From NCBI GenBank assembly GCA_963707025.1, contig CAVPOM010000006.1, positions 544,001 to 608,000 of the forward strand: a DNA stretch of 64,000 nt. Reading direction: 5' to 3'. Shown here one piece after another: positions 18,001-21,000 of this stretch. Numbering within the stretch: position 1 is the stretch's first letter; the number at the start of each line of letters is the position of its first letter. Position numbers: made by a program. The stretch is from an uncultured Verrucomicrobiae bacterium. GTDB lineage: Bacteria; Verrucomicrobiota; Verrucomicrobiia; Limisphaerales; Palsa-1400.

Positions 18001-21000
18001 CAAAAAACACGGCGGCCGGAAAGATCACCCGGCTCACCGGCGACGAACCCGTTTCGATGAATTTCTGGGGCTTCCATCCCGCGCTCTTCGCCCAGTTAAA
18101 AAAGCAGTTCGCGGAATTTCTGGCCGGGAACGCCGGGGACCTGAAGGCCGAATGCTACATTCCCAGCACGGTGAATGATCTTGTGGCGGCGGGCCAGGCG
18201 CGCGTCAAAGTGCTGCGCACCAACGATTCCTGGTTTGGCGTGACTTACCGTGCAGACCGCCCGCGCGTCCTGGAAAGCATCCGCCAACTGATCGCGCGAG
18301 GCGGCTATCCTGAAAACTTATGGAGTTGCATCTGAAAGCTCGTCCTCACCCTAACCCTCTCCTCCGAGGAGAGGGAGGTTGTTTGCACCGGGTTGGCGAT
18401 GTTGAGGCGCTTGGTTTTGCGAAGCGTTTGGCCGGGTTTGGCAAATGCGCTGAGAACTGAGGTGGACGACAGCCTGCTGTTCCCTCTCCTGGAGGAGAGG
18501 GTTAGGGTGAGGTCGAGCATTTTTCCTCACTTTCCATTTTTCCTGATTTGGCTAACCTTCGTCTCATGGCCGGCTCTGAACGCGCCAGACAATTGCGGAA
18601 GGATCAAACCTGGGCCGAGAAGCTCATGTGGCGTTGGTTGCGGCATCGCCGGTTTAGCGATTACAAATTCCGCCGCGAGCATCCCATGGGCATCTATTAT
18701 CTGGATTTCTTTTGCGAAGAAGCGCGCCTGGCCGTTGAATTGGACGGCATAGGCCATGGTCATGCAGACCAGCAGAAGCATGATGTGGAGCGGGAGGCTT
18801 TTCTCACCTCACGCCGCATCAAGGTTTTGCGCTTCTGGAATTCCTATTTGCGCCGCAATGAGAAAAGTGTTCGTGATACCATTTTTCGCGAATTGCAGAT
18901 GCGAGCGCCACATCCGCTGCCGGATTACACGCGACCAAGGCAAGCGCCGGGCGATGATGCGGAGGGGAATAAGTCGGGGAATTAGAGAAATATCAGCGCT
19001 ACGCGGAGATTAAAGGGTTCGTCCTCACCCCGGCCCTCTCCTCCGAGGAGAGGGAGCATTACTGGCAGCGGGTTGGCGATGTTGAGGCCCTGGTCTCTCT
19101 CCGCCGGGGAGAGAGAGAATTGTTTCCAGCGGGTTGGCCCACACGTTTTTAGTTGGCGTTGTTCGTCTGCTAATTCTAATCTAAAAACCACATGAGAATA
19201 AAACCATCGGGAAATCTTCGGGGGATCGCTGTCTTGTTGGGAGCGGCGGTTTTGCCCAACTCGCCGTCGGCGCGGTTGGCGGCGGCGGAACTCAACTTGG
19301 ACAATGGGCAGGTGAGCCTGACCTGCACGACGAAGGACGGCGCGCTTCTGCCCGGCTGGTTGCAGGACAAAAAGACCGGCCAGAGGGTGAACCTCGGCAC
19401 GGACTTGTTCAGTCTGGCGCTGACCAACGGGGCAGTTTTGCATGCCCGGCGAGTTCAGGCTGGCGGGCGAACCGCGCGTCGCGCCATTGGCGGTCAATCC
19501 GAACGCCTCGCGTCTGGCGGAACGGCTGCCGGGCCGGGAACTGGTGGCGGACTTGACCAGCGCGGACGGCAACGTGCAGGTGAGCTGGCATGCGATTTTG
19601 CGCGACGGCTCGCGTTATCTGCGCGAGGAGGTGGTTTTCACGGCGGGAAAAAATCCGCTGCCCTTGAAGGGCGTGGGGATGCTGGAGACGTCGAATGCCA
19701 CCGCGCGCGCGACCGGCACGGTGGACGGCTGCCCGGTGGCGGACCCGACGGCGTTCTACGGGGTGGAGCATCCGCTTTCGATCAATCGTGCGACCAATGG
19801 CGTTGTGCGCTGCTTCCTGCCGCGCGGCGCGGCGATTGGGCCGGGCGAAAGCTTTGCCTGTTCGCAGGTGGTTGGGTTCGTGCGGCCGGGGCAATTGCGC
19901 CGCGATTTTCTGGCCTACCTGGAACGGGAGCGCGCCCATCCCTACCGGCCGTTTCTACATTACAATTCGTGGTATGACATTGCTTATTTCGGCAAGTATG
20001 ACGAGGCGGCGGCCTTGAATGTCATCAACGCCTTCGGCCAGGAACTGGCGGTCAAGCGCGGGGTGAAGCTGGATTCGTTTTTGTTCGACGACGGCTGGGA
20101 CGACAACAAGACGCTCTGGCAGTTTCATTCCGGTTTTCCCAACGGCTTTGCGCCGCTGCAGGAGGCGGCGGCCAAATACGGCGCGGCCCCGGGCATCTGG
20201 CTTTCGCCGTGGGGCGGCTACGGCCAGCCGCACACCGAGCGCATTCAATACGGCCGGGAGCAGGGCTTCGAGATCCGCGGCAATAATTTTTCCCTGGCCG
20301 GCCCGAAGTACTACGAGCGATTCCGCGGGCGTTGCGTGGAGGTGGTGAAAAAGTACGGCATCAACCAGTTCAAGTTCGACGGCATCGGGGTGAGCGGGCG
20401 GGATGAAACGGGCGCGGGCCTGCGCGATTTTGAGGCGATGCTCAGGCTGATTGCCGAGCTGCGCTCGCTCAAGCCGGACATTTACATCAACCAGACCACC
20501 GGCACCTGGCCGTCGCCTTTCTGGCTGCTGCACGCCGACTCGATCTGGCGCGGCGGGGAGGATCATTCCTTCGTCAACGGCCCCGAGCCGCAACGCGAGC
20601 GCTGGATCACCTACAAGGACAATGACGTTCATTCCCGAATCGTGGGCCGCAGCGAACTGTATCCGCTGAATTCCTTGATGTTGCACGGCATCATTTACGC
20701 CAGGCAGGCGCGCGGGTTGAACTATGACACCAACAACATCCTCAAGTCGGAAATCCGCGCCTATTTTGGCAACGGCACGCAGTTGCAGGAAATGTATATC
20801 ACGCCGGCCCTGCTGACGCCGGAAAACTGGGACACCCTGGCCGAGGCGGCCAAGTGGTCGCGCGACAATGCCGGGACGCTCGTGGACACGCATTGGGTCG
20901 GAGGCGCGCCGTCGGCCCGGCAGGTCTATGGCTGGGCGGCCTGGTCGCCCAGGAAGGGCATTTTGACTTTGCGCAATCCGTCGGCCGTGGCCGGGGAAAT

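Follow-up and report, generated by a model that had tools for sequence, protein, structure and literature searches.

Organization of the DUF559 locus

The window analysed in this study is a stretch of 64,000 nucleotides from the genome (G000) of an uncultured Verrucomicrobiae bacterium (contig CAVPOM010000006.1, positions 544,001 to 608,000). Between two host genes it carries a short cassette, composed of a gene for a DUF559 nuclease and inverted repeat units, each built of a tail, a linker and a hairpin. The features are as follows.

17433..18335, + strand: upstream host gene (context), sugar-phosphate nucleotidyltransferase (PF00483); orthologues 89% (G003) and 85% (G005) identical
18320..18337, + strand: start of a kinase-like gene, first six codons (MELHLK), the left junction of the insertion
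18344..18375, + strand: BoxC unit 1 (tail CCTCACCC, 3-nt linker and hairpin CCCTCTCC..GGAGAGGG), which is the outer unit of an inverted doublet
18482..18512, - strand: BoxC unit 2, the left box of the cassette, tail toward the gene
18566..18985, + strand: gene for a DUF559/YcjD-type Vsr-fold nuclease of 139 aa (PF04480)
18976..19022, + strand: leader (blastn, 82-91% over 56-82 nt), also present at six other box copies of this genome that lack the gene and at the orthologous site of G003, likewise gene-less
19023..19054, + strand: BoxC unit 3, the right box of the cassette, tail toward the gene
19094..19116, strand not given: degenerate fourth hairpin of the TCTCTCTCC..GGAGAGAGA type, probably a relic partner of unit 3
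19192..21181, + strand: downstream host gene (context), glycoside-hydrolase-like as judged from sequence alone, without a family match
34162..34517, + strand: 357-bp unit without a gene, bounded by terminal inverted repeats of its own; it contains a BoxC doublet (34339-34371, + strand, and 34457-34488, - strand)

The window contains three perfect CCCTCTCC-N-GGAGAGGG hairpins (18355-18375, 18482-18501 and 19034-19054), each of which carries an 8-nt tail and a 3-nt linker, while 100 shuffles of the window contained none. The two boxes nearest the DUF559 gene are inverted, with their tails toward it, and the left one lies ~50 nt upstream of its start codon; the description of this gene in the initial annotation as boxed by inverted copies of a palindrome was thereby confirmed. 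The doublet at 18338-18520 has a folding z of -10.9, and the segment 19019-19091 is a direct repeat of 18340-18411 (86% identical).

Comparison with related genomes (G003 and G008) revealed the nucleotidyltransferase gene followed by a kinase-like gene, which in G025 and G026 is placed immediately 5' of the downstream gene. In G003 the counterpart of the MELHLK stretch, MELNLK, runs on as a 363-aa ORF, and the similarity to the window stops there. G028 and G003 carry gene-less boxes 5' of the downstream gene, and G005 has a toxin-antitoxin-like pair in its version of the locus. The window locus keeps six codons of the kinase-like gene, followed by boxes, and the cassette occupies the place of this gene in the relatives. 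The orthologous site was found in three states: box-free, boxed but gene-less, and boxed with the gene. No clean, near-identical pair of filled and empty sites was found among G003, G005, G025, G026, G028 and the E. coli eef strains, which are too diverged or carry other inserts. The downstream gene is split by one extra base near 19444, which is absent in the relatives.

Public sequencing runs matched the window in small shares only, and no RNA dataset was among the runs listed as matching. Two runs contained a read joint skipping 18376-19105, which may simply mean that their contig carries one box before the downstream gene. A promoter scan found nothing.

The DUF559 protein

The product of the ORF 18566-18985 is a full-length DUF559 protein (PF04480; E 1.6e-32, 112 bits against a cut-off of 20.6, positions 4-109 of 109). 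It was the single match in the genome (6.96-Mb assembly, 88% complete), in agreement with the earlier claim that no second such gene is present. The protein is 49% identical to E. coli YcjD, with a PRK09767 match below the cut-off. Its predicted structure (pLDDT 82.6) matched 3hrl (NGO0050 of Neisseria gonorrhoeae; Z 13.9, rmsd 1.8, 94 residues), the homing endonuclease I-Bth0305I (Z 11.7, rmsd 3.0, 97 residues) and Vsr (1cw0; Z 9.5, rmsd 2.5, 100 residues).

All putative catalytic residues (E18, D47, E58, D60, H64 and D73) are present in the window protein and are kept in 85-92 of about 92 relatives (picked by a pattern fixing only the KFRR..HP motif), none of which has an internal stop; E58, D60 and D73 are invariant (92/92), and D47 and H64 occur in 91/92. 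The spacing of E18/D47/D60/H64 is that of E73/D102/D115/H119 in Caulobacter VsrA. At the level of sequence, the protein retains a putative Vsr/EDxHD-type active site. It is a free-standing single domain of 139 aa, in which neither an additional DNA-binding domain (including NUMOD) nor a strand-transfer domain (HUH or DDE) was found, nor is it associated with an intron or intein.

Three known protein groups are closest to it. With I-Bth0305I, an EDxHD homing endonuclease (PMC3239194, text available in part), it shares the fold and the type of active-site residues (E, D, D/H, H, D). Such endonucleases carry an N-terminal NUMOD domain, are encoded in introns or inteins and cut the empty allele, and four of the sampled DUF559 copies are located in inteins. 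However, the window protein lacks the NUMOD domain and is encoded outside introns and inteins, and what it is proposed to target is a folded repeat found at dispersed sites rather than an allele that lacks an intron. Vsr, which nicks DNA at T:G mismatches, and Caulobacter VsrA (PMC12907096, in the sections available) resemble it in fold and, for VsrA, in the E/D/D/H spacing; in contrast to them, it has no match to the Vsr family profile (PF03852) and no linked cytosine methylase (a C5-methylase motif was found in 0/222 DUF559 loci, within about 1-1.5 kb), and its gene is highly mobile and framed by repeats. E. coli YcjD and N. gonorrhoeae NGO0050 belong to the same family, and boxes lie near both genes, although ycjD lacks the upstream one.

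The repeat is a BoxC/PIT/TM motif

Judging from its sequence and layout, the dispersed palindrome is the already known BoxC/PIT/TM triplex motif and not a new repeat. The published consensus, in the part of the source available (Holder et al. 2015, PMC4666352), describes a C-rich stem joined through a loop to a G-rich one, which a 3-nt loop separates from another G-rich tract; the window units are the reverse complement of this consensus, with a core of 8 triplets. A pattern built from these units detected 24 sites in E. coli K-12, as against 23 published (PMC4666352), and this argues that the two repeats are the same. Both have a three-tract layout and a 3-nt linker, which reads TTA or CCG on the G-rich strand, and both form inverted pairs of dissimilar units, vary in copy number and lie in unstable surroundings; they differ in the core (8 triplets here, 9 in the published motif) and in the presence of further variants here. 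According to the same source, as far as available, an E. coli TM oligonucleotide folded into a triplex in vitro, in vivo footprinting did not show folding, copy numbers are very uneven and sequence variability is raised around TM sites. It reports no mobility gene beside these sites, and its main text has no mention of ycjD or an endonuclease.

Among 354 scored motifs (401 collected), the third tract was an 8/8 mirror of the purine strand, with a 3-nt linker, in 259, which permits G*G-C, A*A-T and T*A-T triplets. At two positions, replacement of a C-G pair by T-A is accompanied by a change in the tail in 13/15 and 18/20 variants, counts of loci that perhaps reflect only two events. The loop varies from 3 to >30 nt, while the tracts stay constant. 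This pattern of conservation shows the boxes to be three-tract motifs maintained as a putative purine-motif intrastrand triplex plus hairpin, with a third tract that, as judged from covariation, is under selection. A chance or low-complexity origin of the repeat was rejected, as shuffles, reversed-pattern controls and random-position draws were all near zero.

Copies of the repeat are dispersed in G000 (intergenic placement was confirmed for those in the window). The "about 60" places given in the initial annotation correspond to 43 copies with a strict pattern, 62 with a loose one and 72 with longer loops allowed, and these copies form several subfamilies. Approximately 51/72 hairpins are of a short type and about 21/72 of a long type, which flanks a different DUF559 clade in relatives; some copies of the repeat lie inside the 357-bp unit. 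Many of the units are paired, inverted and 84-86 nt apart, with a unit of an unlike type, and some are arranged in tandem arrays with tail-to-tail spacers of 36 or 175 nt; it is in such a tail-to-tail position that the DUF559 gene sits. The 357-bp unit carrying a BoxC doublet is present at a few other places in G000 and in many copies in G003 and G005; no target duplication was seen at it.

Boxes frame DUF559 genes in distant bacteria

Flanks of DUF559 genes (300 nt upstream and 350 nt downstream) were scored with a sequence-flexible three-tract detector, at loci with both flanks available. In four groups taken together, a box was present on at least one side of 194/202 genes and on both sides of 139/202. 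Near relatives (mostly Verrucomicrobiota), sampled as best matches and hence biased to kin, with five duplicates dropped, had a box on either side in 91/92 cases and on both in 76/92. The respective values were 51/55 and 39/55 for the class of a Gallionella genome (an even sample of 61 loci), 25/26 and 8/26 for Chloroflexota (29 loci from 45 matches), and 27/29 and 16/29 for Alphaproteobacteria (30 loci from 49 matches). These counts supersede the figure of 6 of 8 relatives boxed on both sides, from which the initial annotation had started; the association itself stands.

In the 139 doubly boxed loci, the tails point toward the gene in 115 and the opposite inverted layout occurs in 8. Boxes were found at 0/10 DUF559-like domains that end proteins of roughly 1000 aa, and for random 321-nt stretches of G000 the loose motif lay on both sides in 10/20000 draws. 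Within G000, the only pair of tail-inward true boxes >175 nt apart is the one around the DUF559 gene. Across phyla, at the level of sequence, boxes frame DUF559 genes in inverted orientation.

Individual records illustrate the range of arrangements. Among seven named records, the DUF559 genes of Sinorhizobium, Deinococcus and Sphingobium have boxes on either flank, those of Azospirillum and Methylobacterium have, by the detector, an upstream box only, and in Neisseria an array of boxes follows the homologue, which is preceded by a degenerate box. A Picosynechococcus gene is accompanied by another C/G-tract repeat, missed by the detector, and E. coli ycjD has boxes downstream and none upstream.

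A RAYT was rejected as the partner of the repeat in G000, as no Y1 gene is boxed, in agreement with the earlier claim: none of the ten Y1-transposase matches is within 1.5 kb of a true box, and three loose-detector hits near them are unlike the box family. In REP/REPIN-RAYT systems, short structured repeats are dispersed in intergenic regions as inverted doublets and tandem arrays, and they also frame a partner gene that is present once. The repeats described here also form inverted doublets and arrays and frame their candidate partner gene. However, this partner is a PD-(D/E)xK/Vsr-fold nuclease and not an HUH/Y1 tyrosine transposase, the GTAG/CGTC tetranucleotide is absent, and there is a third, triplex-forming tract. 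The cassette resembles REPIN-RAYT in layout and a homing endonuclease in fold, and it is a member of neither class.

Co-occurrence of gene and repeat

Among 60 genomes of relatives (one of which, holding a gene fragment at a contig end, was left out), the median number of copies was 44 in those with a full-length gene (n=18) and 1 in those without (n=41), and at least 20 copies were present in 12/18 and 1/41, respectively. In the Gallionella-class sample, at least one copy was found in 31/42 genomes with the gene vs 27/156 without it. For Alphaproteobacteria these values were 17/25 vs 9/74, and for at least 10 copies 12/25 vs 1/74 (sample centres and three unpublished genomes were dropped). 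The statistical significance of these comparisons is overstated because the genomes are related and many are fragmented. E. coli chromosomes with ycjD had 24, 29 and 12 copies, as against 8, 2 and 3 in three chromosomes with another gene after sapF, which amounts to one or two phylogenetic contrasts. In one of the latter three, the eef operon follows sapF; ycjD occupies the position of this operon in other strains, as is also described in PMC12817139, whose ycjD passages treat it as a hypothetical gene and do not mention repeats.

There are also repeat-rich genomes in which the gene was not detected, namely G005 (36 copies, 64% complete), G416 (40), G258 (50) and G120 (45). In the Gallionella-class sample, a strict-pattern copy is absent from 11/45 gene-bearing genomes, most of whose genes are framed by variant boxes. 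Salmonella is reported to lack TM sites.

The variant of the box follows the clade of the protein, though linkage alone can produce such covariation. A T-type box (CCCCCTT..AAGGGGG) frames six proteins of one clade from two phyla (SH-aLRT 98 in a quick tree of 106 columns) and one protein outside it. Two genomes, G173 and G210, each hold two DUF559 clades, with one T-type-framed and one BoxC-framed gene. A motif-defined group of near relatives (13 loci) has CCTCTCC tails in 19/20 boxes and hairpins of 23-33 nt, and the group of the window gene (48 loci) has CCTCA tails in 82/84 and hairpins mostly of 20-21 nt. A genome-wide test of the T-type, which is weak, detected dispersed copies in 2/4 genomes with a T-clade gene and at least 5 hits in five genomes without one.

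The cassette as a probable mobile unit

Clustering of flanks at 95 loci resolved 175 flanks into 141 clusters. A neighbour was common to 9/285 pairs of genes at 70-80% protein identity, 16/156 at 80-90% and 12/36 at identities of at least 90%. In genome G220, four complete cassettes of about 613 bp lie at separate sites and share 93% DNA identity; three further copies have lost internal sequence but keep both arms, and gene-less arms number in the dozens. G091 contains three full and two truncated cassettes. The inverted arms of these two genomes reach 90-200 bp, those of G220 include another palindrome type, and the outer parts vary between copies, a pattern more suggestive of copying by template switch than of fixed transposon ends.

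DUF559 genes lie within ORFs of at least 400 aa in 20/222 cases. As read from the flanking sequence, these are in-frame inserts, with their boxes, in unrelated proteins: subunits of restriction-modification systems, a helicase, methionine synthase and a tRNA synthetase; the four intein-borne copies are among them. Both boxes are retained at short, clade-typical distances among proteins that are only about 40-50% identical. As read from the genomes compared, the cassette relocates often and is present in multiple and internally deleted copies in single genomes, and it is very probably a mobile unit. Insertion sequences and MITEs of the DDE type are characterised by a transposase gene, fixed terminal inverted repeats and a target-site duplication; the cassette has inverted arms, outer ends that differ between copies and no transposase gene, and no target duplication was seen among the diverged sites available for comparison. 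Viral carriage was rejected on the basis of viral-contig and phage searches: a single query detected no relative in viral contigs, and otherwise two weak phage matches were obtained.

Proposed role of the nuclease and alternative explanations

The reading that we prefer, and consider probable, is that box-gene-box constitutes a minimal selfish element, whose nuclease of the Vsr/I-Bth0305I fold would nick the folded box, after which host repair would copy the cassette or the box. It is likewise rather likely that the DUF559 enzyme acts on boxes at all, and the exact, homing-like route is put forward tentatively. In this route the box would fold when its strand is transiently single (on the lagging strand or during transcription), and the nuclease would recognise the folded form and nick it. 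Host recombination or template-switch repair may then copy the cassette, or a gene-less box, into a box-bearing site or at the break; this step is assigned to the host because the enzyme has no strand-joining chemistry (no HUH and no DDE domain). Spread would be homing-like, with the repeat serving as both end and target, and the dispersed BoxC units would be gene-less derivatives and landing sites of box-gene-box. The expected traces are inverted doublets, tandem arrays, local deletions and the absence of target duplication. The earlier proposal of a candidate partner enzyme that is not a RAYT is supported by the cross-phylum flanking, the control with fused domains, the co-occurrence, the clade-specific variants, the changing neighbours and the deleted derivatives; its caveat still holds, as movement of the repeat by the enzyme is not demonstrated by an association.

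Several observations speak against the selfish reading. E. coli ycjD is boxed downstream only and Chloroflexota genes on both sides in only 8/26 cases, a gene will co-vary with its flanks through linkage alone, and the T-type genome-wide test is weak. Some genomes are rich in repeats without a detected gene, and some with the gene have no strict-pattern copy. Furthermore, Caulobacter VsrA, a DUF559 protein that can damage DNA in vivo, was read by its authors as a mismatch-repair enzyme (PMC12907096, in the sections available). Other transposases may also move boxes, because some boxes ride in the 357-bp unit with other terminal repeats and the arms of G220 hold another palindrome type.

A hitch-hiking gene is an unlikely alternative. 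DUF559 would then be a solitary T:G mismatch or damage-repair nuclease whose ancestral gene was trapped between boxes spread by unrelated transposases (on MITE-like carriers) and by recombination between copies. The 357-bp units with terminal inverted repeats, which carry BoxC doublets in G000, G003 and G005, may be such carriers, TM sites are recombination-prone in E. coli (PMC4666352, as far as available), and VsrA provokes an SOS response in a methylase mutant and was modelled as a VSP enzyme (PMC12907096, likewise). Against trapping stand the facts that in G000 only the DUF559 gene lies between tail-inward boxes, that both boxes are kept at clade-typical short distances despite protein identities of about 40-50%, and that the abundance of the repeat depends on the presence of the gene; moreover, none of the 222 loci has a C5-methylase motif, unlike Dcm-Vsr.

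A caretaker role, which we regard as rather improbable, would have the enzyme recognise the folded box and resolve a triplex or hairpin that stalls replication, with repeats accumulating only where the enzyme makes them tolerable and without being spread by it. The same co-occurrence and covariation data fit this role, as does the block of DNA polymerase by PIT elements in vitro (reported in the available part of PMC4666352), but it leaves unexplained the inverted framing of the gene, the frequent change of neighbours, the multiplication with deleted derivatives and the in-frame insertion in other genes. Finally, it is very improbable that the hairpins are terminators or transcript stabilisers insulating a toxic nuclease gene, with the dispersed copies as ordinary regulatory hairpins: the left box does precede the start codon by about 50 nt and two of the hairpins were listed as terminator-like in a consensus terminator scan (3 found, 1.4 expected), but the third tract, unneeded for a hairpin, co-varies as a mirror of the purine strand, boxes occur in both orientations and within reading frames, and, according to the available part of PMC4666352, purine-motif triplexes are not formed in RNA and PIT elements have no promoter or terminator activity.

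Returning to the selfish element, a broader form of this reading is possible but speculative: DUF559/YcjD proteins would be structure-specific nucleases of intrastrand triplexes, separate enzyme clades would read separate triplex sequences, and box-gene-box (~0.5 kb, without a transposase) would represent a new class of bacterial mobile element, whose own spread and that of BoxC-type repeats in their thousands would proceed through host repair induced by nicks.

Significance

In the literature searched, the coverage of which is partial, we found no paper linking DUF559/YcjD to BoxC (the supplementary table of flanking genes of PMC4666352 may list ycjD) and no description of a protein mobilising BoxC. 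In the consulted parts of PMC3424549, PMC1189080, PMC2267715 and PMC5718144, DUF559/YcjD is grouped with Vsr, or BoxC is listed and no partner is given. The repeat family and the protein family are each known, and it is their joining that is new to this literature.

BoxC has been known since the 1990s, with thousands of occurrences in hundreds of genomes, and DUF559 is a large family of unknown function. To our knowledge, no origin, partner or function of BoxC is known. The pairing of gene and repeat points to an enzyme that may spread BoxC, and it gives the repeat and the protein family a testable role each; E. coli K-12 holds both ycjD and 24 boxes. If the enzyme reads a triplex, bacteria would possess a triplex-specific nuclease of natural origin, and families of REP-like repeats would have a second enzymatic route in addition to that through RAYT. 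Should the reading as triplex nucleases and a new class of element be true, the genome instability reported at BoxC repeats would also be accounted for.

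Additional BoxC arrangements in the genome

The BoxC repeat (hairpin, 3-nt linker and tail) also occurs as a doublet of two inverted units, carried as cargo by a MITE-like unit that is 357 bp long and has inverted repeats at its ends. Copies of this MITE-like unit in the genome under study include:

window 34162-34517: MITE-like unit, 357 bp
C7:166026-166379: further copy
C6:182008-182371: further copy
C4:309443-309795: further copy

This unit is present in many copies in two other genomes (G003 and G005). At C4:822208-822379 of the studied genome, different cargo is found between similar ends. 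Another arrangement is a tandem array of six BoxC-type hairpins with a period of 59 nt (C14:139315-139641). A long-hairpin box subfamily, the copies of which have common flanks of approximately 80 nt, was identified at:

C4:362096
C4:809702
C5:206319
C6:160163
C6:368132
C7:58662
C9:103664
C18:388680

The DUF559 clade that is paired with this box in relatives was not found in the studied assembly.

Probable frameshifts in other genes of the window

The gene downstream of the cassette (window 19192-21181) is split by one extra base near 19444, which is absent from relatives and from a near-identical read contig and is probably an assembly error. Two overlapping frames make up a RecG-like helicase gene (window 12756-14901), which suggests another frameshift.

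Boxes and DUF559 genes at other loci

At five loci (L134, L138, L246, L249 and L260) an extra hairpin replaces the 3-nt linker, while the three tracts are retained. In the multi-copy cassette genomes G091 and G220 (L124, L128, L183 and L188), box hairpins have loops of >30 nt and lie within inverted arms of 90–200 bp, the outer parts of which are copy-specific; a second palindrome type terminates the G220 arms.

In Escherichia coli K-12, 633 bp of ycjD and repeats (L008:918-1550) occupy the place of the eef operon of other strains (L172), and the hairpin directly after sapF is related between the two alleles. A DUF1156 gene of a Synechocystis plasmid is interrupted by a boxed DUF559 cassette (L004:1908-2380), and four Chloroflexota genes (L234, L236, L237 and L238), as read from their sequences, carry DUF559 domains in apparent inteins, with a box approximately 230–280 nt upstream of these putative intein-borne domains.
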